The position numbers and the translations under genes are program-made. Under the pieces are notes generated by a model. The model was not told the origin of the DNA. It made no database searches and saw nothing but the letters and a program-made list of their open reading frames with translations. From positions 1 to 44,075 of the forward strand of contig JAYZKF010000057.1 in assembly GCA_036163755.1 (NCBI GenBank): DNA of 44,075 nt, in the 5' to 3' direction. The stretch comes from Fidelibacterota bacterium. Its GTDB lineage: Bacteria > Fidelibacterota > Marinisomatia > Marinisomatales > TCS55. This document shows, one piece after another, positions 975-39,432 of the stretch (position 1 is its first letter; every line of letters starts with the position of its first letter).

Positions 975-2444
975 ATGTCTAAGGAAATCATAGTTATTGG
1001 GTCAGGTATAGCCGGTATGTCGTGTGCAGCTTATTTAGGGAAGGCCGGACATCGCGTAACTGTTATTGAAAAAAATTTTACATATGGAGGAAGATTACAA
1101 ACTGTAAGTCAGCAAGGATATACTTTTGATTCAGGACCAAGTTGGTATTGGATGCCAGATATATTTGACTCTTTTTTTGCAGATTTTGATAAAAAAACAA
1201 ATGATTATTATGATTTAATACGAATTGATCCTGGGTACAGAGTTTATTTTGGTCAACAAGATTATTTTGATTTAGTTGAAAATCTTGATGTATTAAAAAG
1301 AAATTTAAGTAAGCTAGAAGAAGGTGCCGGAAAAGCTTTACAAAGATACCTTGATGATGCAGAAGAAAAATACAAAGTAGCTGTTAAAAAATTTATGTAT
1401 AAACCAAGTTTGTCTCCTTTAGAATATATACATTTTGATTTAATTAAACGATTGGGGAAGCTGAATTTATTTAGACCAATTAGCAAACATATTCGTCAAC
1501 ATTTTTCTAATAATAAAATTATTCAAATGTTAGAATTTCCTAGTTTATTATTGGGTGCAAAACCATCAGACACACCCGCGTTATATAGTATAATGAATTA
1601 TGCTGATATTATTTTGGGAACATGGTATCCTAGCGGTGGAATTAGATCTGTAGCAAATGCTATTTATGAAGTCGCAAAATCCCAAGGTGTAAACTTTTTA
1701 TTTAATCAACCTGTAAATAAAATCTCAATGAATGGAAATAAAGCAACAGGGGTTGTGACAAATAAATCATCTTATCATGCTGACATAATTGTTGCAAATG
1801 CTGATTACCATCATGTAGAACAGACTATGTTGCTAAAGCAAAATCGCAACTATTCAAAATCTTATTGGGAAAAAAGGATCATGTCACCAAGTGCATTGTT
1901 ATTTTATGTTGCTTTAAATAAAAAGTTAGATATATCTCATCATACTTTATTTTTTGATTCTGACTTCAAAAAACATGCTAAAGAAATTTATGATAATCCC
2001 AAATGGCCCGAGCAACCTCTATTTTATACTTCCTGCGTATCAAAGACAGATCCAAAAGTTGCGCCTAAAGATGGAGAGGCTTTATTTATTCTAATTCCTG
2101 TCGCGCCTAATTTGGATGATAATGACCAGATTAGAAAAAATTATTTTCAACAGGTAATTTCAAGAATTGAATTATTAATTAATCAAAATATTAATGATCA
2201 CATAGTATTTTCAAAATCTTATGCTCACCGAGATTTCATTTCAGATTATAACTCATTTAAAGGTAATGCATATGGTTTAGCAAATACTTTATTTCAAACC
2301 GCCTTTTTAAAACCCAAAATAAAAAACAAAAAAATCAATAATTTATATTATACAGGACAATTAACAGTTCCAGGACCAGGGATGCCACCTTCAATTGTGT
2401 CTGGGAAAATAGTAGCTGATCAAATTGATATTGAGATAAAATGA
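975..2444 (+). CDS. crtI: Phytoene desaturase (CrtI type)
   Basis: N-terminal FAD Rossmann motif VIGSGIAGMSCAAYLGKAGHRVTVIEKN and C-terminal YYTGQLTVPGPGMP. The 489-aa length matches CrtI. Its stop overlaps the crtB start (ATGA). Confidence 0.85.
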   Translation: MSKEIIVIGSGIAGMSCAAYLGKAGHRVTVIEKNFTYGGRLQTVSQQGYTFDSGPSWYWMPDIFDSFFADFDKKTNDYYDLIRIDPGYRVYFGQQDYFDLVENLDVLKRNLSKLEEGAGKALQRYLDDAEEKYKVAVKKFMYKPSLSPLEYIHFDLIKRLGKLNLFRPISKHIRQHFSNNKIIQMLEFPSLLLGAKPSDTPALYSIMNYADIILGTWYPSGGIRSVANAIYEVAKSQGVNFLFNQPVNKISMNGNKATGVVTNKSSYHADIIVANADYHHVEQTMLLKQNRNYSKSYWEKRIMSPSALLFYVALNKKLDISHHTLFFDSDFKKHAKEIYDNPKWPEQPLFYTSCVSKTDPKVAPKDGEALFILIPVAPNLDDNDQIRKNYFQQVISRIELLINQNINDHIVFSKSYAHRDFISDYNSFKGNAYGLANTLFQTAFLKPKIKNKKINNLYYTGQLTVPGPGMPPSIVSGKIVADQIDIEIK

Positions 2445-3289
2445 CTAATTCTGAAAGATATCTCCAATCAAGTTTGAAAGCGTCTAGAAGTATAACAAAA
2501 ACTTATAGTACTTCTTTTTCTTTAGGGATTTTTTGTCTTGGAAGAAATATTAGAAATGATATCTATAGTATTTATGGATTTGTACGAGTAGCAGATGAAA
2601 TCGTTGATACTTTTTTTGAAATAGATCAAAGTAAAAAAATTGATGATTTTCATCAATCAACTATTGAATCAATAAAAAATTCATATAGTTCAAATCTAAT
2701 TCTCCATGCTTTCCAAAATGTTGTTAATACTTATCAAATTGATATCGAATTAGTTAATTCTTTCTTTAAAAGTATGAAAGCTGATTTAACTAATAAAAAC
2801 TATAATAGAGAATCTTATGAAGAATATATTTATGGTTCTGCTGAAGTTGTTGGACTGATGTGCCTTTATGTTTTTCTAAATGGAAATCAAAAAAAATATA
2901 ATGAATTAAAAATATACGCACAGAAATTAGGTTCTGCATTTCAAAAGGTTAATTTTTTAAGAGATTTTCATGAGGATTATAAATTAAAAGGTCGAGCATA
3001 TTTTCCTGAGCTTGAAATGGATGGGGAATTTGATGAGTCTTCAAAAAAACAAATTGAAAATGATATTCAAAAAGATTTTGATGAAGCAATTAATGGAATT
3101 AAACGATTGCCAAGATCAAGTTGCCTTGGGGTTTATCTAGCATATCGATATTATAATAAATTATTAAAAAAATTAAAATTAACGCCTGCTTCAAAGCTTT
3201 TAAATAAACGGATACGAGTAAATAACTTTCAAAAGTTTATGCTTTTGCCTTCAGCTCTATTATTTTCATTATTTATGAGGAGAGCTTAA
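2441..3289 (+). CDS. crtB: Phytoene synthase
   Basis: Squalene/phytoene synthase family: YSTSFSLG, first Asp-rich motif RVADEIVD, second motif NFLRDFHEDY. Length 282 aa. Confidence 0.85.
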   Translation: MTNSERYLQSSLKASRSITKTYSTSFSLGIFCLGRNIRNDIYSIYGFVRVADEIVDTFFEIDQSKKIDDFHQSTIESIKNSYSSNLILHAFQNVVNTYQIDIELVNSFFKSMKADLTNKNYNRESYEEYIYGSAEVVGLMCLYVFLNGNQKKYNELKIYAQKLGSAFQKVNFLRDFHEDYKLKGRAYFPELEMDGEFDESSKKQIENDIQKDFDEAINGIKRLPRSSCLGVYLAYRYYNKLLKKLKLTPASKLLNKRIRVNNFQKFMLLPSALLFSLFMRRA

Positions 3290-3291
3290 CA

Positions 3292-3762
3292 ATGATGGTA
3301 TTATTTATACTTTTATTATTTGCGAATAATACAATCAGTGATTTATCAGTTCGGGAAATGTATAAAGCGTCTACTAAAGATGAAGAAACATGCCTGGAAC
3401 TCCTTGAGCTATTAAAAGAAGATGATGAATTAAATTCTTCTCCAACAAAATTAGCTTTTTATGGGGGGACTCTAACATTAATGGCTTTCTATTCTAATAA
3501 TCCAATTGACAAATTGATTTATAGTAGAAAAGCAAATAAGGCTCTTGATCGTTCTTTGAAATTAGATCCTCAAAGTTTTGATGGGAGAAGTTTGAGAATT
3601 CTATATAATGCTAATGTTCCTATTTTTTTATCAGATCATGATGAACTTAAAGAAGATATTCTTTTATTTAATTCATTGATTAGATCCCCTCAAGACTACA
3701 GCATATATAATCAATGGATGATTTCAATTATCAATGAAACCCTAAGCAAATCTAAGTTGTAA
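3292..3762 (+). CDS. Hypothetical protein with N-terminal hydrophobic signal/anchor, embedded in the carotenoid cluster
   Basis: 156-aa ORF with a strong SD (GAGGAG) upstream. It starts 2 nt after the crtB stop and ends 12 nt before crtZ. It has a hydrophobic N-terminus (MMVLFILLLFA) and looks helical. I recognise no family. Confidence 0.5.
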   Translation: MMVLFILLLFANNTISDLSVREMYKASTKDEETCLELLELLKEDDELNSSPTKLAFYGGTLTLMAFYSNNPIDKLIYSRKANKALDRSLKLDPQSFDGRSLRILYNANVPIFLSDHDELKEDILLFNSLIRSPQDYSIYNQWMISIINETLSKSKL

Positions 3763-3774
3763 ATTCGGAGCCTT

Positions 3775-4221
3775 ATGTTTGAATTATTAATAGTTATTGG
3801 TGCATTTTTTGGAATGGAATTTGTTGCTTGGTGGACTCATAAATATGTGATGCATGGTTTTTGTTGGTTTTTGCATGAAGATCACCACGTTCTTACCGGG
3901 AAGCCCTACCAAAAAAATGATTCTTTTGCGCTTGTCTTTGCTATTCCAAGCATTACCTGCTTCTTTGTGGGAAGTTTTTATGAGCCAACTTGGTTAATAT
4001 ACATAGGTTTGGGAATTCTGCTATATGGTATTGCATATATGTTAGTTCACGATATTTTTATTCATCGCAGATTAAAAATTTTTCAAAAACCAAAAAATAA
4101 ATATTTAAAAGGTATTTTATTTGCACATCGTATTCATCATTCAAATTTAGGAAAGGAAAATTGCGAGTATTTTGGTATGCTTTTTGTTCCAATACGTGCA
4201 TTTAAATTAATGGAGAAATAG
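3775..4221 (+). CDS. crtZ: Beta-carotene 3-hydroxylase
   Basis: His-box pattern of the fatty-acid hydroxylase superfamily (HKYVMH, HEDHH, HDIFIH, HRIHH). It is 148 aa with hydrophobic segments, matching CrtZ in size and motifs. A GGAG SD lies upstream. Confidence 0.85.
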   Translation: MFELLIVIGAFFGMEFVAWWTHKYVMHGFCWFLHEDHHVLTGKPYQKNDSFALVFAIPSITCFFVGSFYEPTWLIYIGLGILLYGIAYMLVHDIFIHRRLKIFQKPKNKYLKGILFAHRIHHSNLGKENCEYFGMLFVPIRAFKLMEK

Positions 4222-4224
4222 AAA

Positions 4225-4926
4225 ATGGATAATTATTTATATCTATTAATAAATATAACATCCATACTCATTCCATTTATTTTTTCATTTTATCATAAAA
4301 CTAGTTTTTTCCCAATATGGAAAAAACTTTTTCCAGGTTATATTATTATGACAACTATTTATTTAATCTGGGATATTATTTTTACTCGAATGGGTATTTG
4401 GGGTTTCAATGATCAATATTTAATTGGGTTCAATATCCTCTTCCTTCCATTAGAGGAATGGCTATTCTTTCTGTGCATTCCTTTCGCTTCATTATTCATT
4501 CATTATAATAAAATCAAATTGAATCCAAAATTGCGACTATCTGAATCAAAGTCAAGATTGACTGTAAAAATCATAATTGGACTTTTATTATTTATTCTAT
4601 TTCAGAATTTTGGGAAATTATATACAACTATAACATTCACATTTACTATTCTTCTTCTTACACTTGTTATGTATAAAAATATTTCTTTATTACAAGATTT
4701 TCTTGTTTCATATGTATTCATCTTAATACCATTTTTCATTGTTAATGGCATTCTAACTGGATCATTTATCATTGATCAAATTGTTTGGTATAATAATGAT
4801 CACAATATGGGAATACGTATTGGAACAATCCCTTTTGAAGATATTTTTTATGGGATGACTTTATTTCTTGGAACTATTTTTTTAGCTGATCATTTCAATG
4901 GCTCATTAACTAATCAATCTAAATAA
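4225..4926 (+). CDS. Lycopene cyclase, fused CrtYc/CrtYd (lycopene-cyclase-domain) type
   Basis: 233-aa polytopic membrane protein with two copies of the lycopene-cyclase-domain signature, LPLEEWLFF and IPFEDIFYG, one in each half. Confidence 0.75.
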   Translation: MDNYLYLLINITSILIPFIFSFYHKTSFFPIWKKLFPGYIIMTTIYLIWDIIFTRMGIWGFNDQYLIGFNILFLPLEEWLFFLCIPFASLFIHYNKIKLNPKLRLSESKSRLTVKIIIGLLLFILFQNFGKLYTTITFTFTILLLTLVMYKNISLLQDFLVSYVFILIPFFIVNGILTGSFIIDQIVWYNNDHNMGIRIGTIPFEDIFYGMTLFLGTIFLADHFNGSLTNQSK

Positions 4927-7658: not shown

Positions 7659-8585
7659 ATGAAAATCGCTATATTTGGCGGAACTGGATTTGTGGGTTCA
7701 TATATTATTGATGAGCTATTAAAAAATGACCACGAGCCTTTAGTCTTAGTTAGAAAAGGTTCTAAGTCAAAACTAATTAATGCAGATAAATGTAAAATTA
7801 TATCTGGAGACATTAGTGAGATTGAATCAATTGAGAATACTATCAAATCTGCGGATGTAGTGATCTATTGTATAGGTATAATTCGTGAGTTTCCTAAGAA
7901 AGGTGCAACCTTTGAACAGTTACATTTTCAAGCAGCAAAAAAATGTATTGATGTTGCGAAGGCATTAGGTGTGAAAAGGTTTATAATGATGAGTGCCAAT
8001 GGCGTTAAAGTTGATGGAACTGGTTATCAAAGGACCAAATATTTAGCTGAAGAATATTTAAAATTTTCAAATCTAGATTGGACTATCTTTCGTCCATCAT
8101 TGATCTTTGGTGATCCTAGAGGTGGGGGGAGGCCTGAGTTTTGTTCTCAACTTAAGAAAGACATGTTAAGTCTTCCTTTCCCAGCTCCTAATTTCCATCC
8201 AGGTCTAAATCCAATGAATGCAGGAAAATTTGCAATGTCTCCTATACACATAAATAACGTTGCTGAGTTTTTTGTAAAATCAATTGAGTTAAAAGAATCA
8301 ATAAAAAAAATATATTCGCTCGGAGGTGAGGCTTATTATTGGAAAGATATAATTACCACTATTGCAAAATCATATGGAAAGAAGAAATGGACCGTACCTG
8401 CACCTGCAATAGGAGTACAAATCTTAGCAACATTTCTGGGAAGATTCTCATGGTTCCCTATAACAAAAGATCAAATTACAATGTTGTTAGAAGGAAATGT
8501 TTGTGATTCTAAAGAGTTCTATGATTTGTTTCAAATTGAACAAATACCATTTAATACTGAAACACTTTCTTATCTAAATAAATAA
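7659..8585 (+). CDS. NAD(P)H-binding SDR-family protein (NmrA/NDUFA9-like)
   Basis: N-terminal Rossmann motif IAIFGGTGFVGSYII, a YxxxK-like YQRTKYLAE, and RPSLIFG. Length 308 aa. Confidence 0.7.
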   Translation: MKIAIFGGTGFVGSYIIDELLKNDHEPLVLVRKGSKSKLINADKCKIISGDISEIESIENTIKSADVVIYCIGIIREFPKKGATFEQLHFQAAKKCIDVAKALGVKRFIMMSANGVKVDGTGYQRTKYLAEEYLKFSNLDWTIFRPSLIFGDPRGGGRPEFCSQLKKDMLSLPFPAPNFHPGLNPMNAGKFAMSPIHINNVAEFFVKSIELKESIKKIYSLGGEAYYWKDIITTIAKSYGKKKWTVPAPAIGVQILATFLGRFSWFPITKDQITMLLEGNVCDSKEFYDLFQIEQIPFNTETLSYLNK

Positions 8586-8599
8586 CTTAATTGATTAAT

Positions 8600-9118
8600 A
8601 TGAAGATATTAGCCATTCTATTGGTTGTCTTTTTTGTTGGAGGTTTAGCTCTTGTTTTTGCTAATAACCAATCAGTGCAATTGAATGTTGGTGACATTGC
8701 TCCAGATTTTTCATTAAAAGACCAAGATGGTAAGGTTAGAAAATTATCTGATTATACTGGTGAACGTCTTATCGTTTATTTTTTTCCTAAAGCGGATACC
8801 CCTGGATGAACAAAAGAAGCTTGCGGGTTCCGCGACATTTATGGAGAATATAAGAGAGCAAAAATAAAAGTTCTTGGAATAAGTTATGATTCGCCAAGAG
8901 CGTTAAAAAAGTTTAAGAAAAAATATAGATTACCTTTTCATTTCTTATCAGACTATAAGAAAGAAGTAGCTCCAAAATATGGAGCTGCAAGTATAGCCTG
9001 GCCAAAAAGGATGACTTTTATAATTGATAAGGATGGTAGAATTGAAAAAATTTATAATAAAGTAAATGTTAATACTCATGCGGAAAAAATATTAGATGAC
9101 TTACTTGGTAAAAAATAA
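8600..9118 (+). CDS. bcp: Thiol peroxidase Bcp/PrxQ-type peroxiredoxin with in-frame TGA (8807-8809) read as selenocysteine. The protein is predicted to be exported or membrane-anchored.
   Basis: The track ORF ends at ...FFPKADTPG-TGA. The same frame stays open for 102 further sense codons (TKEACGFRDIYGEY...GISYDSP...LPFHFLSDY...RMTFIIDKDGRIEKIY...) and ends at TAA 9116-9118. The joined sequence FFPKADTPG-U-TKEACGFRD matches the Bcp active site FYPKAxTPGCTxxACxxRD. The start is ATG 8600 (MKILAILLVVFF...) or TTG 8591. Confidence 0.8.
8816..8840 (+). promoter_or_regulatory. Candidate bacterial SECIS hairpin downstream of the recoded UGA
   Basis: The core UUGCGG-GUU-CCGCGA (8821-8835) forms 6 bp including one G.U pair. 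It can be extended with bulges by GAAG (8816-8819) and CAUUU (8836-8840). The stem begins 12 nt after the UGA. Confidence 0.4.
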
Positions 9119-11462
9119 TAGATCATTATTTATTATTCCTTTTCTTTTAATCAATCTGATTTACTCTCAGACTAATTCAAACCAAATATTTGGTTTTATT
9201 ACTGATAGTAAATCTGGTGAAGCGTTAATTGGTGCGAACGTATTTATTCAAGAGAATGGAAAGGGAATGGCAACAGATATAAATGGATATTATGTTATTT
9301 CAGGGATTGAAATGGCGGAGGCCACCTTGGTGGCTTCATATGTTGGTTACAAAAGATTTGAAAAGAAAATAAATTTTGAGAATGATAATCCAAATAAATC
9401 TATTAATCTTAATATTTCAATGGAAGTTCAAGCTCTTGAGATTCTTCAGATTGATGTTACCGCAGAGGAGATTGAAAGATTGAATAAAATTGAACCAAGC
9501 CGCATAAACCTTTCCCCGAGGATGCTAAAAGCTCAACCGGCTCTTGCTGAGCCTGATATATTTAGAACCATTCAATCCTTACCAGGTGTCCTGACAAATT
9601 CAGAATTAAGTACAGGATTAATTATTCGTGGAGGAAATACTGATCAGAACTTGATTTTATTAGATGGAATCACTGTTTATAACCCTTCTCATATGGGAGG
9701 TATTTTTTCAAACTTTATTGTTGATGCCGTCAAAGATGCAGAATTAATTAAGGGAGGATACAATGCGGAGTATGGTGGTAGACTTTCTGCAGTATTAGAC
9801 ATTACTAGTAGAGAGGGTAATAGAAACGAATTTGAAGGGAAAGCCAGCGTTTCATTATTATCTGCGCAAACAACAATGGAAGGACCTTTTTTGAATGGTG
9901 CTTGGCTTTTTTCGGGAAGACGAACTTATTTTGATTTATTATTACCCAAGGTATTACCTAAAGAAACAGCTGATAATATACCTCCATATTATTTTTACGA
10001 TTTACAGGGTCATGTATTTACTGACTTAAATGAAAAAGATCGTATCTCATTTAGTTTTTATAATGGAATAGATGATTTTTCATTTAATGATCTAGACCTA
10101 ACAGCATATTGGGGCAATCAGACAGGGAGTTTTTCATATAGACGCGTATTTGCTGAAAAATTAATTGGGAATTTTCTATTGGCAAAAAGTCGTTTTTTTA
10201 CTCGTTTTAGTTTAGGTGGTGACTTTGGACTTAACAGTGAAAATTATATTGATGATATAACCGCTTCTGGAGATCTCTCTTATTTTTCAAGTGAGAATTT
10301 TAATGTATTTTTTGGTGGGCAGCTCAAAAACTATTCGATTAATTATGAAAGTTCTTTTGGAGATAGTTCTACTTTTGGTCTTCCAAATAAAGCCACTGAG
10401 ACATCATTATATACAAAAGTTAAATGGAAGCCAAATAGAAAAATAATTATTGAACCCGGTATTCGATTAAATACGTTTACTGCTCATGAAAAACCTTTAT
10501 ATCCAGATTTCCGATTAGGTGCTAAATATATAATTAATCCTTCTCAATTTATAAATATGGCTATAGGCAACTATCATCAATTCATAGAGACATTTCAGGA
10601 TGATTTTAATCCACCCTTTTTAGATAATTGGGTTGCTATTGATAATTCTGTTGATCCCGCTATGTCAACTCAATTTGTTTTAGGTTATGAGCAGTACATT
10701 GGATCAAGCTATAAATTCCAAGTAGAGGGATATTACAAGGATATAAGTAATCTACTGACTTTTGAAGATCCTACAGCATCGACAGATGGAGATATTCCGT
10801 CAGAAAAATTATCTGATATTTTGACAAAAGCAGATGGATATGCATATGGCCTTGAACTTTTTGGCCAAAAAACTGCTGGAAAACTTTCTGGTTGGGTAGC
10901 ATATACTTGGTCAGTTAGTCGAAAAAAAATGAATGGGATGGAATATTTTACTAATTGGGATCGTAGCCATGTCTTAAATATCCTTGGCAGTTATCAAGCT
11001 AATGAAAAATATGAGTTAAACTGGAAATGGACTTTACAATCAGGTCAGGCACATACACCTATCAATGGTTACTTCATTGAAAATTTACCGGGTGACCCTG
11101 AATTTAGATATCGAACTATTCCTGGGACACGTAACGGAGGGAGATATCCACCTTACCACCGTTTAGATATTGGAATGGTAAGACATTCAAAAATAAAAAA
11201 CACAAAATTCGATCTTTATTTCCAAATAATTAACTCATATAACCGAAAAAATATTTTCAGATATGGATATAGTCTTGGTAGTGTATATAATGGCATAGAT
11301 GATGATGGTGATTGGGAAGAAAAAAAACATGATAAAAACGGGAATAAACGTCCTGATATAGGAGAAACAAATGTAGATGAGCCTGATGAAGGTCGGATAC
11401 AAAGACAGGATATAAATCTTTTTCCAATTATTCCAACTATAGGTATTACTTTTGAATTTTAA
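9096..11462 (+). CDS. TonB-dependent receptor with an N-terminal CarboxypepD_reg-like domain
   Basis: Signal peptide, then IFGFITDSKSGEALIGANVFI...TDINGYYVISGI (carboxypeptidase-regulatory-like fold). A plug region follows (PGVLTNSELSTGLIIRGG, ILLDGITVYNP), then a beta-barrel ending in a C-terminal Phe (ITFEF). The start overlaps the bcp 3' end by 23 nt. Confidence 0.85.
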   Translation: MTYLVKNNRSLFIIPFLLINLIYSQTNSNQIFGFITDSKSGEALIGANVFIQENGKGMATDINGYYVISGIEMAEATLVASYVGYKRFEKKINFENDNPNKSINLNISMEVQALEILQIDVTAEEIERLNKIEPSRINLSPRMLKAQPALAEPDIFRTIQSLPGVLTNSELSTGLIIRGGNTDQNLILLDGITVYNPSHMGGIFSNFIVDAVKDAELIKGGYNAEYGGRLSAVLDITSREGNRNEFEGKASVSLLSAQTTMEGPFLNGAWLFSGRRTYFDLLLPKVLPKETADNIPPYYFYDLQGHVFTDLNEKDRISFSFYNGIDDFSFNDLDLTAYWGNQTGSFSYRRVFAEKLIGNFLLAKSRFFTRFSLGGDFGLNSENYIDDITASGDLSYFSSENFNVFFGGQLKNYSINYESSFGDSSTFGLPNKATETSLYTKVKWKPNRKIIIEPGIRLNTFTAHEKPLYPDFRLGAKYIINPSQFINMAIGNYHQFIETFQDDFNPPFLDNWVAIDNSVDPAMSTQFVLGYEQYIGSSYKFQVEGYYKDISNLLTFEDPTASTDGDIPSEKLSDILTKADGYAYGLELFGQKTAGKLSGWVAYTWSVSRKKMNGMEYFTNWDRSHVLNILGSYQANEKYELNWKWTLQSGQAHTPINGYFIENLPGDPEFRYRTIPGTRNGGRYPPYHRLDIGMVRHSKIKNTKFDLYFQIINSYNRKNIFRYGYSLGSVYNGIDDDGDWEEKKHDKNGNKRPDIGETNVDEPDEGRIQRQDINLFPIIPTIGITFEF

Positions 11463-14199: not shown

Positions 14200-14514
14200 T
14201 TATTTATCCCCAACATCAAGGATATCAAGTAACTCACCATTTTGGTGTAATTCCATGGTTATATCTGCTCCTCCGATAAGTTTTCCATTAACAAAAAGTT
14301 GGGGAATTGTAGGCCAACCTGATTGTTCAGATAATCTTATTCTAATCTCAGGGTCTTCTAAGATATTTACATCTTTGTATTCAATTCCATAGTGGTTAAG
14401 AATTTGAACAACCTGATTAGAAAACCCGCACATTGGCATGTCTTTAGTACCTTTCATATATAGGATTATTGGGTTTTTTTCGATATCATTTTTTATTTGT
14501 TCTGATAGTTTCAT
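14200..14514 (-). CDS. grxD: Monothiol glutaredoxin (Grx4 family)
   Basis: CGFS active site (MCGFSNQVVQIL), WPTIPQLFVNGKLIGGAD. Length 104 aa. Confidence 0.9.
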   Translation of the reverse strand: MKLSEQIKNDIEKNPIILYMKGTKDMPMCGFSNQVVQILNHYGIEYKDVNILEDPEIRIRLSEQSGWPTIPQLFVNGKLIGGADITMELHQNGELLDILDVGDK

Positions 14515-16817: not shown

Positions 16818-17231
16818 TTAGTCAGCTAAGCTATTAATGTCATCTCTTATGAGAATCAGTATAGCAGATTGGGGAACAATTAAATAATCTTCATTTTCAA
16901 TTTTTACTTCAATAGAAGCTTTATTTAAAAATAATGCCATGTCTCCCACATCAGCTTGAGTTGGAATATATTTAACTGTAGAATTATTATTAGTTGACCA
17001 AGGTTCTTCAATATCCTCATCAGGATTACCTAATGGAATTCCAGGACCGACCTCAACAACAATTCCGCTGAGAATCTCTTGTTTTTCAACAACGCTTGGT
17101 GGAAGATAAAGTCCTGCCTTAGATTTTTTTTCTCCCCGATCAGGTCGAATTAATATCCGATCTCCAACAACAAGAATTTGTTTATTTTTGCTTCTCATGT
17201 AAGAAATTAAGGATGTTTGTTTGGTTCGCAC
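16818..17231 (-). CDS. Divergent GroES/Cpn10-family protein
   Basis: GDRILIRP...KSKAGLYLP...SGIVVEVGPG...VGDMALF...EDYLIVPQSAIL follows the GroES fold pattern, but with an insertion of about 25 aa (NPDEDIEEPWSTNNNSTVKYIPTQ). The track start is GTG at 17231, and ATG at 17198 (MRSKNKQ) is an alternative. No groEL follows. Confidence 0.55.
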   Translation of the reverse strand: MRTKQTSLISYMRSKNKQILVVGDRILIRPDRGEKKSKAGLYLPPSVVEKQEILSGIVVEVGPGIPLGNPDEDIEEPWSTNNNSTVKYIPTQADVGDMALFLNKASIEVKIENEDYLIVPQSAILILIRDDINSLAD

Positions 17232-34127: not shown

Positions 34128-35516
34128 ATGGCAGCTTTTGATACTGTAGTGTTGGGTGGGGGTCCTGGAGGTTATGTCTCAGCAATACGCGCTGCTCAAT
34201 TGGGTAATAAAACGGCGATAATTGACCAAGATAGGCTAGGTGGAATATGTCTTAATTGGGGTTGTATACCAACAAAGGCACTATTAAAAAGCGCAGAAAT
34301 TCTACACTATATAAAAAATAGTGGAGGATACGGTATTAAAGTTCCAAAATATGATATTGATTTTGATCAGACCATTAAGCGAAGTAGAGATATTTCTTTT
34401 AACCTATCAAAAGGCATTGAATTTTTAATGAAAAAAAATAAAATAAAACATATCGTTGGTAGGGGTATGCTTAATTCAGAATCTGAGGTTATAGTTGATG
34501 ATGGTAAGAAAAAACAAAAAATTCAGGCTAAAAACATTATTATTGCAACTGGTGGTAGGGTCAAAAAATTTCCTGGAATAGAGTTCGATGGTATAAATAT
34601 TATTTCATCTAAAGAAGCCATGGTAGTTGAATCTCCTCCGAAAAAGTTAATTATTATTGGTGCTGGCGCTATCGGTGTTGAATTTGCATATTTTTTCAAT
34701 GAATTTGGGAGTCAGGTGCATCTGATTGAAATGATGCCAAATATTCTTCCTAATGAAGATTTAGAAATCTCAAAGGAGCTGGAAAAACTTTTTAAAAAAA
34801 CAGGAATTAATATTCATACAGATACTAAGGTATCTAATATTAAGAAATTGCAAAAAAATGTCAAGGTTTCCCTTGAAAAGGGAAAAACTTCAAAGATTAT
34901 TAATGCTGAAAAAGTTTTAATCGCGACAGGTGTTCAGGGCAATATTGAAGAAATAGGACTAGAGAATGTTGGAATAAAGACAGATAATGACTCAATAGTA
35001 ATAAATGAGTTTAATCAAACATCTGTGCGAAATATTTATGCAATAGGGGATGTATCTGGTCCTCCTTGGCTAGCTCATGTTGCTTCTGCTCAAGGTCATG
35101 TTGCAGCTGAACATGCTTCAGGTTTAACAACCCATCCATTAGATTATAGTAATGTACCAGCATGTACCTATTGTCAGCCGCAAGTAGCTTCCTTGGGACT
35201 CACTGAAAAAGCTGCTAAAGATAAAGGATATAAAATAAAAGTTGGCCGTTTTAAGTTTAGTGGAAGCGGTAAAGCACTTGCTATTGGGTCTTCAGAAGGA
35301 TTTATAAAAATTATTTTTGACGAAAAATATGGCGAATTACTTGGGTGTCATATTATTGGCCATGATGCAACAGAATTGATTGCTGAACTAACGATAGCTA
35401 AAGCTCTCGAAACGACATGGCAAGAGATAGCAATAACAATGCATGCACATCCAACTCTTTCCGAAGCTATTATGGAGGCAGCCCAAGATGCTTATGGACA
35501 AGGGATTCATCAGTAA
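34128..35516 (+). CDS. lpdA: Dihydrolipoyl dehydrogenase (E3)
   Basis: GGGPGGY FAD motif, redox-active disulfide GGICLNWGCIPTK, and C-terminal HAHPTLSE. Confidence 0.9.
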   Translation: MAAFDTVVLGGGPGGYVSAIRAAQLGNKTAIIDQDRLGGICLNWGCIPTKALLKSAEILHYIKNSGGYGIKVPKYDIDFDQTIKRSRDISFNLSKGIEFLMKKNKIKHIVGRGMLNSESEVIVDDGKKKQKIQAKNIIIATGGRVKKFPGIEFDGINIISSKEAMVVESPPKKLIIIGAGAIGVEFAYFFNEFGSQVHLIEMMPNILPNEDLEISKELEKLFKKTGINIHTDTKVSNIKKLQKNVKVSLEKGKTSKIINAEKVLIATGVQGNIEEIGLENVGIKTDNDSIVINEFNQTSVRNIYAIGDVSGPPWLAHVASAQGHVAAEHASGLTTHPLDYSNVPACTYCQPQVASLGLTEKAAKDKGYKIKVGRFKFSGSGKALAIGSSEGFIKIIFDEKYGELLGCHIIGHDATELIAELTIAKALETTWQEIAITMHAHPTLSEAIMEAAQDAYGQGIHQ

Positions 35517-36161
35517 ATGGGAACATCTATAAACATACTGGACTTGGGTAGAATGAGCTATAACTCTGCATGGGATATCCAAAAAAATTATCATCAAAAG
35601 GTTTTAACAGGCAAAGAACAAGATACTCTTATTTTAGTGGAGCATGAGCCAGTATATACTTTGGGTAAAAATGCAAATGATAATCATCTGCTTCAATCTG
35701 CATCAGAAGAGATAAAAGTCTATAGAATTGAAAGAGGTGGAGACATAACTTTTCATGGTCCAGGGCAAATCGTAGTCTATCCGATTTTGGATTTAAATAG
35801 ATACATTAAAAGTGTTTCGTGGTATATGAGAACATTGGAAAAAATTATAATAGATACACTATCAGATTTCAAAATAAAAGCTGAACTAAAAGATGGACTG
35901 ACAGGGGTTTGGGTCGGTGATGAGAAAATTGGTGCACAAGGAGTTAGAATTTCTCGATGGGTTACAATGCACGGATTGGCTCTTAACGTAAATACTGATC
36001 TTAGATATTTTGATGGAATTATACCTTGTGGAATATTTGATTATGGTGTTACATCTATGGAAAAATTAACAGGGAGCAAACAAGATATAAATAAAGTAAA
36101 AAATACAATTATCAAATATTTTAATAATATCCTTTCACATAAAAAAGTAAGATATAACTAA
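35517..36161 (+). CDS. lipB: Lipoyl(octanoyl) transferase
   Basis: EHEPVYTLG, ERGGDITFHGPGQ and the PCG region. It starts immediately after the lpd stop (TAAATG). Confidence 0.85.
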   Translation: MGTSINILDLGRMSYNSAWDIQKNYHQKVLTGKEQDTLILVEHEPVYTLGKNANDNHLLQSASEEIKVYRIERGGDITFHGPGQIVVYPILDLNRYIKSVSWYMRTLEKIIIDTLSDFKIKAELKDGLTGVWVGDEKIGAQGVRISRWVTMHGLALNVNTDLRYFDGIIPCGIFDYGVTSMEKLTGSKQDINKVKNTIIKYFNNILSHKKVRYN

Positions 36162-38167
36162 TGGCTAGATTGCACGGATTTCAAAAAAAGGAATTATTAG
36201 ATATTTATAATAAAATGTATCTTGCGCGAACTTTGGATGAAAAACAGTTGATTTTACTTAAGCAAGGAAAGGGGTTTTTTCATATTGGTTGTTCTGGCCA
36301 TGAAGGAGCACAGCTGGCAGCATCAAATAATCTGAATCCTGGAAAAGATTGGGTTTATCCGTACTATAGAGATGCCGCATTATGTCTAGGTCTTGGTATG
36401 ACCGGTAAAGAGCAACTCCTTTCATTTTTAGCCCGCGATGATGATCCGAATTCAGGTGGTCGACAAATGCCTCAGCACTATGGTCATAAAAATTTGAGAA
36501 TAGTAAGTCAATCAAGTCCAACTGGGACCCAATTTTTACAGGCAGTTGGTTGTGCAATGTCAAGGAAATGGGAAAAGACAAAAGAAGTTGTTTATGTTTC
36601 ATCAGGTGAAGGTAGTACAAGTGAAGGGGAGTTTCATGAAGCCTTAAATTGGTCTAGTCGTGAAAAGCTACCGGTAATATTTCATATTCAAGATAATCAA
36701 TATGCAATTAGTGTTCATATATCAGAGCAGACTTCTGGGTCTTCTGTTTATTCAATGGTTGGCGGTTATCAAAATCTATCAAGGTACAATGTTGATGGTA
36801 CCAATTTTTTTGAAACTGACCTTGCATTTAAACAAGCTGTAGAAAGGGCAAGGAAAGGGAAAGGGCCATCGGTAATTATTTCTCGAGTTATTCGGTTGTT
36901 ACCCCATTCTTCATCTGATGATCAAAGAAAGTATAGATCTGATAAAGATTTAGAATCCGATAAAAAAAAGGACCCAGTAGAGCTATTTGAAAAATATTGC
37001 ATAAATAAAAAAGTTGCTTTACCTAAAGATTTTGAGACTATAAGAAATAAAGTTTTTGAGCAAGTTAATTTGGATGCAGAATGGGCTGATAAACAAAACC
37101 ATCCTGATACATCTACCGCATTAGATCATGTTTATTCTGATCAAAGCAATTTAAAAGAAAAGTCATTAAAGACAATTAATGATAAGGTAGTGTTGGTTGA
37201 TGCAATTAATCATGCAATGTTTGAGGAAATGTCATTAAATAAAAAAATGGTTATTTATGGAGAAGATATTGCTGATCCAAAAGGTGGAGTTTTTACTGCA
37301 ACAAAAGGTTTGACAAAAGAATTTGGAAAAGATAGAGTTTTTAATTCCCCACTTGCTGAAGCATCAATTATTGGAACTGCAATTGGTCTTGCTGTTACAG
37401 GTTGGAAGCCATGTGTTGAAATACAGTTTGGGGATTATATCTGGCCAGCAATGATGCAGATTAGAAATGAGTTAGCTTCAATGCGTTATCGTTCCAATGG
37501 AAATTGGAAATGTCCATTGGTGATTCGGGTACCAGTAGGTGGATATATACATGGTGCCATATGCCATAGTCAATCTATTGATGGATATTTTATGCATATG
37601 CCAGGTATAAGGATTGCTTATCCATCTAATGCTTCTGATGCGAAAGGATTGCTTAAGGCAGCTTGCAGGATGGATGACCCCGTGATATTTATGGAGCATA
37701 AAGGATTATATCGCCAAGGATTTTCATCTACACCAGAGCCTGACGAAAATTATATATTACCATTTGGCAAAGCAAAAATTATCCAAGAAGGAAATATATT
37801 AACGATAATAACTTGGGGAGCAATGGTTCAAAAGTGTATAGAGTCTGTGAAAGCGTGTGAACTTGAAAAAGATATGGTTGAAATTATTGATCTAAGAACA
37901 TTAAATCCATTGGATCACAAAACTATTAGTTCTTCTGTTCAAAAAACAGGTAAAGTTTTAGTCGTTCATGAAGACAATTTAACGAATGGACCCGGAGCCG
38001 AGATTGCAGCTTTAATTGCAGAAAATAATTTTGAATATTTAGATGGGCCGGTTAAAAGAGTAGGCTCAGCTGATGCACATGTGCCTTATAATTGGCATTT
38101 AGAAGAAAAGGTGTTAGTTCAAAATAGTGATATTCAAAATGCATTAATTGAATTATTGGAGTATTAA
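36161..38167 (+). CDS. 2-oxoacid (branched-chain-type) dehydrogenase E1 component, fused alpha/beta subunits
   Basis: The N-terminal half carries TPP-binding alpha motifs (GHEGAQLA, SSGEGSTSEGEFHEALN). The C-terminal half carries beta motifs (FNSPLAEASIIGTAIGLA, IQFGDY). Length 668 aa. Confidence 0.85.
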   Translation: MARLHGFQKKELLDIYNKMYLARTLDEKQLILLKQGKGFFHIGCSGHEGAQLAASNNLNPGKDWVYPYYRDAALCLGLGMTGKEQLLSFLARDDDPNSGGRQMPQHYGHKNLRIVSQSSPTGTQFLQAVGCAMSRKWEKTKEVVYVSSGEGSTSEGEFHEALNWSSREKLPVIFHIQDNQYAISVHISEQTSGSSVYSMVGGYQNLSRYNVDGTNFFETDLAFKQAVERARKGKGPSVIISRVIRLLPHSSSDDQRKYRSDKDLESDKKKDPVELFEKYCINKKVALPKDFETIRNKVFEQVNLDAEWADKQNHPDTSTALDHVYSDQSNLKEKSLKTINDKVVLVDAINHAMFEEMSLNKKMVIYGEDIADPKGGVFTATKGLTKEFGKDRVFNSPLAEASIIGTAIGLAVTGWKPCVEIQFGDYIWPAMMQIRNELASMRYRSNGNWKCPLVIRVPVGGYIHGAICHSQSIDGYFMHMPGIRIAYPSNASDAKGLLKAACRMDDPVIFMEHKGLYRQGFSSTPEPDENYILPFGKAKIIQEGNILTIITWGAMVQKCIESVKACELEKDMVEIIDLRTLNPLDHKTISSSVQKTGKVLVVHEDNLTNGPGAEIAALIAENNFEYLDGPVKRVGSADAHVPYNWHLEEKVLVQNSDIQNALIELLEY

Positions 38168-39432
38168 TGATTGTAGATATTGTAATGCCAAAAATGGGTG
38201 AGTCCATAACTGAAGGGACCATTATTGAATGGAGAAAAAAAGTAGGTGACGCAATTAAAATGGATGAAATAATCCTTGAGATTGGTACTGATAAAGTTGA
38301 TTCTGAAATCCCAAGTTCTACTGACGGTGTATTGATCGAAATTATTGGAAAACCAAATGATGTGATGGAAGTAGGTGCTGTGATTGCAAGAGTTGAAACT
38401 GATTCAAAGGCTTCAGTTATTGAAAAACCCGTAGAAGAAAAAGAAGATATAGTTCTTGAAAAAAATATTGAATCAAAACCAGTAGTCCAGAAAAAAGTTT
38501 CAATTAAATCAAGCTTAACCGAGAAGAAATTTTTTACACCGGTTGTTAATAGAATTGCTGAAGAAAACAATATAGATCATGGTGAATTAATGAACATTAA
38601 AGGTAGCGGAAAAGGTGGAAGGGTAACAAAGGTTGATATCCTTAGTTATATAAAGAATCGCCAGGATTCAAGCCTTGAAGTAATGTCAAAAGATCAACAA
38701 GATATACCATCTCATGCTTTTTCTAATGAAGAAGATAAAATAGAGATGGATCATATGAGAAAATTAATTGCAGACCATATGAGATCTAGCATAGATACAT
38801 CGGCGCATGTTTATGTCATGACTGAGGTTGATATGACAAAGATTGTTGATTATGTTTCACTAAAACAAGAATCTTTTTTTCAAAGAGAAGGATATAGTTT
38901 AACCTATACTCCTTTTATAATTCAGGCATGTGTTAAAGCTCTGGGCCAATTTCCGGATATGAATTCATCTTTAGATGAGAATTCAATTATTCATCATAAA
39001 AATATAAATATTGGTATGGCTGTCGCAGTAGATAATGGACTTATGGTGCCAGTTATATTAAACTGTGAAGAATTAAATTTTTTAGGAATATGTAGAAAAG
39101 TTCGTGATCTAGTATTGAGAACTAGAAACAAAGAATTAAATGCAGATGAGCTACAAGGTTCAACATTTTCTATTTCTAATTTTGGGGTTTTCAATGTAAC
39201 AATGGGTACTCCGATTATCAATCAGCCAAACGTTGGAATTTTAGGCGTTGGAGTCGTAAAGAAAAGACCTGTCGTAATAGAAACAAATGATGGGGACACT
39301 ATAGGTATTAAAAGCATGATGTACTTGTCGCTTGGCTTCGATCATCGCTTAATCGATGGTGCAGGTGGTAGCCAATTTATTGAATCGATCCGTGAAAATA
39401 TTGAAAAGATTGATTTAGAAAGTTTATTATAA
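38167..39432 (+). CDS. Dihydrolipoamide acyltransferase (E2)
   Basis: Lipoyl domain MPKMGESITEGTI...EIGTDKVDSEIPS, an E3-binding domain (TPVVNRIAEENNID), and a catalytic domain ending in DHRLIDGA. Confidence 0.9.
   Translation: MIVDIVMPKMGESITEGTIIEWRKKVGDAIKMDEIILEIGTDKVDSEIPSSTDGVLIEIIGKPNDVMEVGAVIARVETDSKASVIEKPVEEKEDIVLEKNIESKPVVQKKVSIKSSLTEKKFFTPVVNRIAEENNIDHGELMNIKGSGKGGRVTKVDILSYIKNRQDSSLEVMSKDQQDIPSHAFSNEEDKIEMDHMRKLIADHMRSSIDTSAHVYVMTEVDMTKIVDYVSLKQESFFQREGYSLTYTPFIIQACVKALGQFPDMNSSLDENSIIHHKNINIGMAVAVDNGLMVPVILNCEELNFLGICRKVRDLVLRTRNKELNADELQGSTFSISNFGVFNVTMGTPIINQPNVGILGVGVVKKRPVVIETNDGDTIGIKSMMYLSLGFDHRLIDGAGGSQFIESIRENIEKIDLESLL

Follow-up and report, generated by a model that had tools for sequence, protein, structure and literature searches.

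An in-frame UGA at the peroxidatic position of a Bcp/PrxQ-type peroxiredoxin gene of SAR406/Marinimicrobia is predicted to encode selenocysteine

We analyzed contig JAYZKF010000057.1 of assembly GCA_036163755.1 as a stretch of 44,075 nucleotides (nt) on its forward strand, hereafter called the window, to which all coordinates without a locus prefix refer. Judged from its sequence, the interval 8600-9118 is one gene of a SAR406/Marinimicrobia bacterium; it specifies a peroxiredoxin of the Bcp/PrxQ type (atypical 2-Cys) and is interrupted by an in-frame TGA at 8807-8809. This UGA is very probably read as selenocysteine (Sec) at the peroxidatic position of the enzyme. The evidence comes from the alignment of the active site, from the conservation of the TGA and of the coding sequence that follows it, and from a hairpin just downstream of the UGA that is constrained at the RNA level.

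The reading frame from 8591 runs through ...LIVYFFPKADTPG to TGA 8807-8809 and then continues for 102 sense codons, TKEACGFRDIYGEY...ILDDLLGKK, up to TAA 9116-9118, and translation thus confirmed an original prediction, made from the letters alone, that a TGA interrupts a frame of this extent. The same prediction described the part before the TGA as a 72-aa open reading frame (ORF), a figure that holds when counted from TTG 8591 but does not correspond to the gene start. Since every homologue starts at MK(I/L), matching ATG 8600, we placed the gene at 8600-9118 on the plus strand, with 172 codons from ATG 8600 to TAA 9116-9118 and with UGA as codon 70. No other TGA in the window links two open stretches outside other long ORFs, and because TGA 8807-8809 does so in an otherwise ORF-free region it is not a chance event.

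When Cys was placed at residue 70, the protein matched the AhpC-TSA family PF00578 with 129.6 bits (cutoff 26, E-value 8e-38) over positions 1-123 of the 124 in the profile. The best NCBIfam match was NF006960, the E. coli-type Bcp, with 135.1 bits against an equivalog cutoff of 140 for a query that carried the N-terminal leader and Cys in place of Sec, while the PrxU model NF040737 gave 40.9 bits against a cutoff of 270, which places the protein outside that family. All top PDB matches were BCPs. In the alignments with the BCP structures 2ywn and 5epf (CTKEMC and CTKEAC, respectively), position 70 coincides with the peroxidatic Cys and C75 with the resolving Cys, and together with the PF00578 match these alignments agree with the earlier claim that the TGA occupies the peroxidatic Cys of a Bcp with the resolving Cys retained five residues later. 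The active-site motif PxxxTxxU, as defined in PMC13188914, is encoded at 8786-8809 (P63-K-A-D-T67-P-G-U70), and the resolving Cys, C75, is encoded by TGC at 8822-8824, inside the 5' arm of the hairpin described below. A conserved active-site Arg, R137, encoded by AGG at 9008-9010, lies in WPKRMTFIID, which aligned to P-A-R-I-T-F-V-I-D of the BCP 3drn.

A homologue set of 80 loci was obtained by scanning one genome per species. The closest 25 loci, almost all labelled Marinimicrobia, Neomarinimicrobiota or SAR406, share 50-81% protein identity with the window protein. TGA was found at the peroxidatic-Cys column in 25 of 25 Marinimicrobia loci and also in four loci of Acidobacteriota, three from Terriglobales (L025, L027 and L030) and one from Bryobacteraceae (L053), and in one of Chloroflexi (L046), about 30 loci in total. 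TGC or TGT occupied the same column in 38 other homologues, and no codon other than TGA, TGC or TGT was found there among the loci matching the active-site pattern. The 102 codons downstream of the TGA showed a ratio of nonsynonymous to synonymous substitution rates (dN/dS) of 0.07-0.12, compared with 0.08-0.23 upstream, in pairs with estimable dS (0.5-2.6), and the C-terminus, ...VNVNTHAEKILDDLLGKK, is kept across genera. Because dN/dS is low and the C-terminus is conserved, the part 3' of the TGA is, on this comparative evidence, translated in frame across the phylum. This pairing of Sec and Cys forms, in combination with the conserved downstream hairpin, upholds the earlier prediction of Sec.

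In a rough neighbor-joining tree, the Sec forms of Marinimicrobia and Terriglobales formed one clade, whereas the Sec form L053 clustered with Cys forms of Bryobacterales (L058 and L060) and the Sec form L046 with a Cys form. Since L053 and L046 group with Cys forms, apart from the Marinimicrobia/Terriglobales Sec clade, at least three switches between Sec and Cys are suggested for the Bcp-type family. Dynamic Sec/Cys evolution has been described previously (PMC1794560). At the codon level, L053 has TGA where its close Bryobacterales orthologues L058 and L060 have TGC, and a paired hairpin, GCGA-GUU-UCGC, is present in the TGA form only; the comparison points to a recent Sec/Cys switch within one family. 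Separately, the Sec form at L046:10133, from a Chloroflexi metagenome-assembled genome (MAG), reads TPG-U-TMEARQFDE and lacks the resolving Cys, so that its product would be a 1-Cys-type seleno-peroxiredoxin. The loci L007 and L008 represent one and the same region, present on two separate contigs of a single MAG. In another case, L018 (PBRL01000073), labelled as Chloroflexota MAG NP954, has a Sec-Bcp gene almost identical to that of Marinimicrobia UBA7303 (L017), and its contig may be mis-binned.

The hairpin after the UGA lies at 8821-8835 on the plus strand and consists of a 5' arm UUGCGG (8821-8826), a triloop GUU (8827-8829) and a 3' arm CCGCGA (8830-8835), so that a stem of 6 bp carries a loop that begins 17 nt past the UGA. 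The published consensus for bacterial Sec insertion sequence (bSECIS) elements asks for a loop of 3-9 nt, a stem of 4-16 bp, a spacing of 16-37 nt and a minimum free energy of at most -7.5 kcal/mol, with a G among the first two loop nucleotides that usually has G or U after it (PMC13188914). The GUU loop, the 6-bp stem and the 17-nt spacing satisfy the geometry of this model, and the region just after the TGA, where a search for a SECIS had been suggested, therefore contains a conserved hairpin that agrees with the published rules for loop, stem and spacing.

Codon usage shows that this segment is constrained beyond its protein sequence. The hairpin codons TGC GGG TTC CGC GAC are each minority codons in the window, with a joint usage probability of 1.6e-5, and the 18-nt segment that contains them has a GC content of 72% in a genome of 31% GC. 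In 13 Marinimicrobia, TGC GGG TTC CGC (codons +5 to +8) is fixed, and the one exception, CGT, still pairs as G-U; in the same 13, 2-6 codons are used at the other columns of invariant Gly, Arg, Phe or Leu, and dS is saturated elsewhere. In a 27-sequence alignment, pairing within the helix was 84.6% in register, as against 36-72% when the partners were slid, and three helix pairs had changed on both sides. Among the more divergent Sec forms, L046 has a CGUC/GACG stem with a 5-nt loop, AGUUC, and is more stable than any other hairpin in the set (-18.9 kcal/mol, z-score -2.7), in L053 an A-U pair replaces G-C, and in L033 the stem is shifted by one nucleotide (CCUGCA/UGCGGG); both L053 and L033 keep the GUU triloop. 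The Cys-form homologue loci, which served as a control, contained no in-register hairpin. The residues that follow Sec are C-G-F-R in the TGA forms, with rare exceptions in the distant L033, L046 and L053, whereas the Cys forms read C-(S/G/A/N)-(I/F/L)-R. From the constraint on the hairpin we infer that the CGFR peptide after Sec is imposed by the RNA.

These observations fit the following mechanism. A ribosome arriving at the UGA would meet the hairpin at 8821-8835, 17 nt downstream, which would act as a bacterial SECIS and recruit SelB-GTP with Sec-tRNA(Sec); this complex would outcompete release factor 2, and Sec would be inserted at codon 70. BCPs follow an atypical 2-Cys cycle, in which a single helix holds both the peroxidatic and the resolving Cys (CP and CR), with CR five residues after CP. 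In the enzyme studied here, the selenolate of U70 would attack peroxide and become a selenenic acid, and the latter would form an intramolecular selenenylsulfide with C75, which a thioredoxin-like reductant would reduce. The enzyme itself may be exported or anchored in the membrane through its N-terminal hydrophobic segment.

Several results weigh against the reading of the UGA as Sec. The hairpin has a free energy of -5.9 kcal/mol alone and -7.2 kcal/mol in 45 nt, just short of the model threshold of -7.5 kcal/mol, with a z-score of -0.7 against shuffled sequences, and a hairpin of equal quality follows about 1% of the window's TGA trinucleotides. A lower stem spanning 8798-8846, UGA included (-10.4 kcal/mol), was dropped, as it is not conserved in relatives; for the hairpin at 8821-8835, neither a bulge nor a lower stem proved to be conserved, and RNAalifold recovered only the 3 innermost pairs. 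In the subgroup L017-L023, the canonical stem is weakened by a G-G mismatch (CGG for CGC, listed for L017-L020 and L023); these loci may use an alternative 6-7 bp hairpin (GGAUUC/GAAUCY) with a CGGGAU loop, 9-37 nt past the TGA. Folding of single sequences gave no significant z-scores, and the case for the hairpin is comparative, not thermodynamic. No SECIS family of Rfam was found, either at gathering thresholds or at a permissive E-value on 8560-9160, where only chance matches appeared; because bacterial SECIS elements are, to our knowledge, poorly covered by Rfam, this null result is uninformative. As for the Sec machinery, tblastn with E. coli SelA, SelB and SelD gave no match in the window and the 80 loci (1.2 Mb), family scans of the window and related loci yielded no selA, selB or selD, and ARAGORN found no tRNA-Sec in the window and the 30 Sec-form loci, where it detected only tRNA-Glu, tRNA-Val and tRNA-Gly. 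In addition, a survey from 2016 assigned three SAR406 single-cell genomes the status 'orphan SelD', with no other selenium-trait or selenoprotein gene (PMC5029168). Since every Marinimicrobia genome in our set has the TGA gene, the simplest explanation for this status is that the single-cell genomes were incomplete and the gene calls truncated. Finally, Sec insertion in the Bcp-type family is still a prediction, because the sole verified Sec peroxiredoxin, PrxU, belongs to another subfamily.

The alternative that survives best, although we consider it unlikely, is that the UGA is recoded to a residue other than Sec, either to Cys by a selC-like tRNA delivered by SelB or to Trp by a near-cognate tRNA, with a thiol enzyme or an inactive enzyme as the respective product. 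SelB-dependent insertion of Cys has been proposed for a few bacteria. Such recoding would agree with the lack of a tRNA-Sec or Sec-synthesis gene among the window and related loci and with the report of SelD only in SAR406 single-cell genomes, yet SelD is itself the selenium donor, so that the same report (PMC5029168) also speaks for the use of selenium in SAR406. Homologues replace the TGA by Cys only and never by Trp or Gly, and a Trp at the peroxidatic position would abolish catalysis in a protein that is under strong purifying selection along its whole length. If Cys were the outcome, there would be no reason to maintain a costly UGA and hairpin throughout the phylum when TGC suffices.

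A pseudogene or truncated gene, in which translation stops at 8807-8809 and leaves a 69-aa fragment or no product at all, is very unlikely. Standard gene callers do yield exactly a 69-aa product, as in the assemblies L082 and L084, where the gene call ends at 69 aa, and the absence of Sec machinery from the window and related loci would suit a dead gene. On the other hand, the fragment would be missing the catalytic residue along with half of the thioredoxin fold, whereas the 102 downstream codons have stayed open under the purifying selection described above, the C-terminus is conserved across genera and the TGA is invariant in about 30 loci.

Reading of TGA as a sense codon in the code of the host, as Trp in code 4 or as Gly in code 25, is practically ruled out. 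Its apparent support comes from the low GC content of the genome, 31%, and from a database of 5.8 billion proteins, where at least 81 of the 120 best clusters have W at the Sec position followed by CGFR, while 34 of the 120 have C followed by variable residues. For the W protein P0001, the one checked, the underlying DNA (L081:253-771) has TGA, and hence the W is an artefact of metagenome gene callers that apply code 4 to short contigs. The pipelines that we encountered thus mishandle the gene as had been anticipated, by truncation at 69 aa or by translation of TGA as Trp. A further database protein, P0119 (Joint Genome Institute, annotated as peroxiredoxin Q/BCP), with the sequence ...VVVYFFPKAFSEYGKADI, lacks the 15 residues that surround the Sec position (DTPG-U-TKEACGFRD), as if the gene model or assembly had skipped the TGA region. 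Within the window, TGA ends 12 of the 44 other genes, often in ATGA stop/start overlaps, and citrate synthase and lipA, both ended by TGA, stop where their family profiles stop; TGA 8807-8809 is the only in-frame TGA of the window, and the homologue column holds Cys rather than Trp or Gly. The stops at 888-890 and 2442-2444, cited in the original prediction against a reassigned code, are likewise real ORF ends.

A sequencing or assembly error that produced TGA from TGC or TGT, for which a one-base change would suffice, is ruled out because independent assemblies share the TGA: it is found with the identical hairpin in three metagenome assemblies from different samples (L081, L082 and L084, 94-99.6% nucleotide identity), as well as in a Sanger read of the Global Ocean Sampling (GOS) and in about 30 genomes, which also settles the concern raised earlier about a TGC/TGT artefact.

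The predicted Sec peroxiredoxin of the window begins with a hydrophobic segment, MKILAILLVVFFVGGLALVFA (8600-8662, plus strand), which was read from the sequence and ends in V-F-A before NNQS. An MK-plus-hydrophobic leader that ends in V-F-A or similar is present in all Marinimicrobia Sec-Bcp forms (N-termini of L001-L024), and signal-peptide-like leaders also occur in many of the closest Cys homologues, whereas the Acidobacteriota Sec forms lack a leader and start directly at the catalytic domain. The leader suggests a signal peptide or a membrane anchor, and the enzyme may accordingly act outside the cytoplasm, as an exported or membrane-anchored protein.

In the dark ocean, SAR406/Marinimicrobia rank among the bacterial lineages of highest abundance. 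We tentatively propose, while giving the idea somewhat less than an even chance, that SAR406 is a phylum-wide user of Sec, with an exported or periplasmic seleno-peroxidase at a syntenic locus and a lineage-wide need for selenium in peroxide defence, and that a second candidate selenoprotein belongs to the same trait. If it is true that SAR406 needs selenium for peroxide defence, this would bear on the trace-element ecology of the deep ocean. Beyond the 'orphan SelD' table, we found no literature that ties Marinimicrobia, SAR406 or Marinisomatota to selenoproteins.

The second candidate is a lipoprotein of about 185 aa with a signal ending in LMAC or LVAC, found in Marinimicrobia at L011:215-772 and on the metagenome contig L086:95-694. 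Both copies contain TGA and read LLVSPT-TGA-(GV/SF)-C-LEGARWVQ, a UxxC motif, and the flanks on both sides are conserved, with 74% identity. A hairpin, GGGCCC-GGU-GGGUCC, lies 22 nt past the UGA. The candidate had no Pfam match and one database homologue only, and its motif was not seen in the part of the GOS supplement that was available. These features may give indirect support for the use of Sec in Marinimicrobia.

The window is densely coding, with 31% GC. Directly upstream of the peroxiredoxin gene lies a gene for an NAD-binding NmrA-like protein (7659-8585), and directly downstream one for a TonB-receptor-like protein (9096-11462). A tRNA-Glu gene is located about 5-8 kb downstream of the peroxiredoxin gene in the window and in 11 of the closest 25 loci, and because of this similar placement in 11 relatives we regard the locus as syntenic. 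Beside the tRNA-Glu, about 5 kb from the peroxiredoxin gene, is a glutaredoxin gene (14200-14514, minus strand, 104 aa), whose product is a possible thiol-redox partner; no link to the peroxiredoxin was seen. No selenium-related gene was found in the window.

Elsewhere, a carotenoid cluster spans 975-4926 and comprises an amine-oxidase-type desaturase (975-2444), a phytoene/squalene synthase (2441-3289), a fatty-acid-hydroxylase-family protein (3775-4221) and a lycopene cyclase domain protein (4225-4926). Other genes, of housekeeping character, encode a DUF5916 protein, lipopolysaccharide glycosyltransferases, citrate synthase, enzymes of queuosine and folate metabolism, and lon. At 34128-38167, two ORFs had drawn attention because their lengths of 462 and 668 aa resemble those of SelA and SelB; they turned out to encode dihydrolipoyl dehydrogenase and a fused 2-oxoacid dehydrogenase E1. 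The 668-aa ORF (36161-38167) matches both the alpha and beta subunits of pyruvate/2-oxoacid dehydrogenase E1, that is, a fused E1 alpha-beta, and it clusters with dihydrolipoyl dehydrogenase (34128-35516), lipB, E2 (38167-39432), a methyltransferase and lipA. Cpn10 proteins are usually about 95 aa long; a Cpn10/GroES-domain ORF at 16818-17231 on the minus strand measures 137 aa from its GTG start, has no adjacent groEL, and may have its true start downstream of this GTG.

We compared the gene, its product and its hairpin with known systems. Like the E. coli fdhF and fdnG SECIS elements and the bSECIS model, the window hairpin lies within the coding sequence just past the UGA, has G then U in its apical loop and is spaced within 16-37 nt. 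It is much smaller than the E. coli elements, with 6 bp, a triloop and -5.9 kcal/mol, and the binding of SelB to it is predicted. With the Cys-containing BCP/PrxQ proteins (E. coli Bcp, NF006960; 3drn, 2ywn and 5epf; Xanthomonas 3gkk, 3gkm and 3gkn), the window protein shares the fold, the motif, the CP-x4-CR pair on one helix and the Arg, whereas it differs in the predicted Sec at the peroxidatic position and in an additional N-terminal hydrophobic leader. By analogy with these enzymes, its catalytic cycle is expected to be that of the Cys BCPs, in which an intramolecular bond is reduced by thioredoxin. PrxU of Eubacterium acidaminophilum is an experimentally verified Sec peroxiredoxin (Sohling et al. 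2001, as cited in PMC13188914) and has Sec at the same peroxidatic position of PxxxTxxU. It represents a different peroxiredoxin subfamily, however, being about 230 aa long, lacking the resolving Cys at CP+5 and coming from a strict anaerobe rather than an ocean-water bacterium.

The closest known system is the selenoprotein family listed as 'Peroxiredoxin (Prx), TxxU motif, COG1225/PF00578', represented by 43 sequences from the Sargasso Sea (Zhang, Fomenko & Gladyshev 2005, PMC1088965) and by 253 in GOS, where it is among the most abundant marine selenoproteins (Zhang & Gladyshev 2008, PMC2398784). In the GOS data, the read JCVI_READ_1092961126811, annotated as a Sec peroxiredoxin, is identical to residues 26-172 of the window protein at 146 of 147 positions, and the Sargasso contig AACY01034826 matches the orthologue at L003; the Sargasso members share FFPKADTPGU. 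The assignment as a Sec peroxiredoxin is therefore correct but already known, since a near-identical sequence was catalogued in 2008 and the family in 2005, and the earlier remark that such proteins occur in marine metagenomes understated the case, as a 99.3% identical sequence had already been listed as a selenoprotein. Biologically, little is added beyond the known family. Because public protein sets truncate the gene or mis-translate it as Trp, with at least 81 of the 120 best clusters carrying W and others ending at 69 aa, the gene models of SAR406 should be corrected. The present analysis makes modest additions: placement of the family in SAR406, where its locus is conserved, a CGFR peptide that appears to be dictated by the SECIS-like hairpin, and the possibility that the enzyme is exported. 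The GOS and Sargasso proteins and the window protein belong to the same family and are near-identical, sharing the TPGU motif, CGFRD and a predicted SECIS; those sequences, however, are anonymous reads, whereas the gene described here stands in a 44-kb SAR406/Marinimicrobia context with conserved synteny and a signal-like segment.

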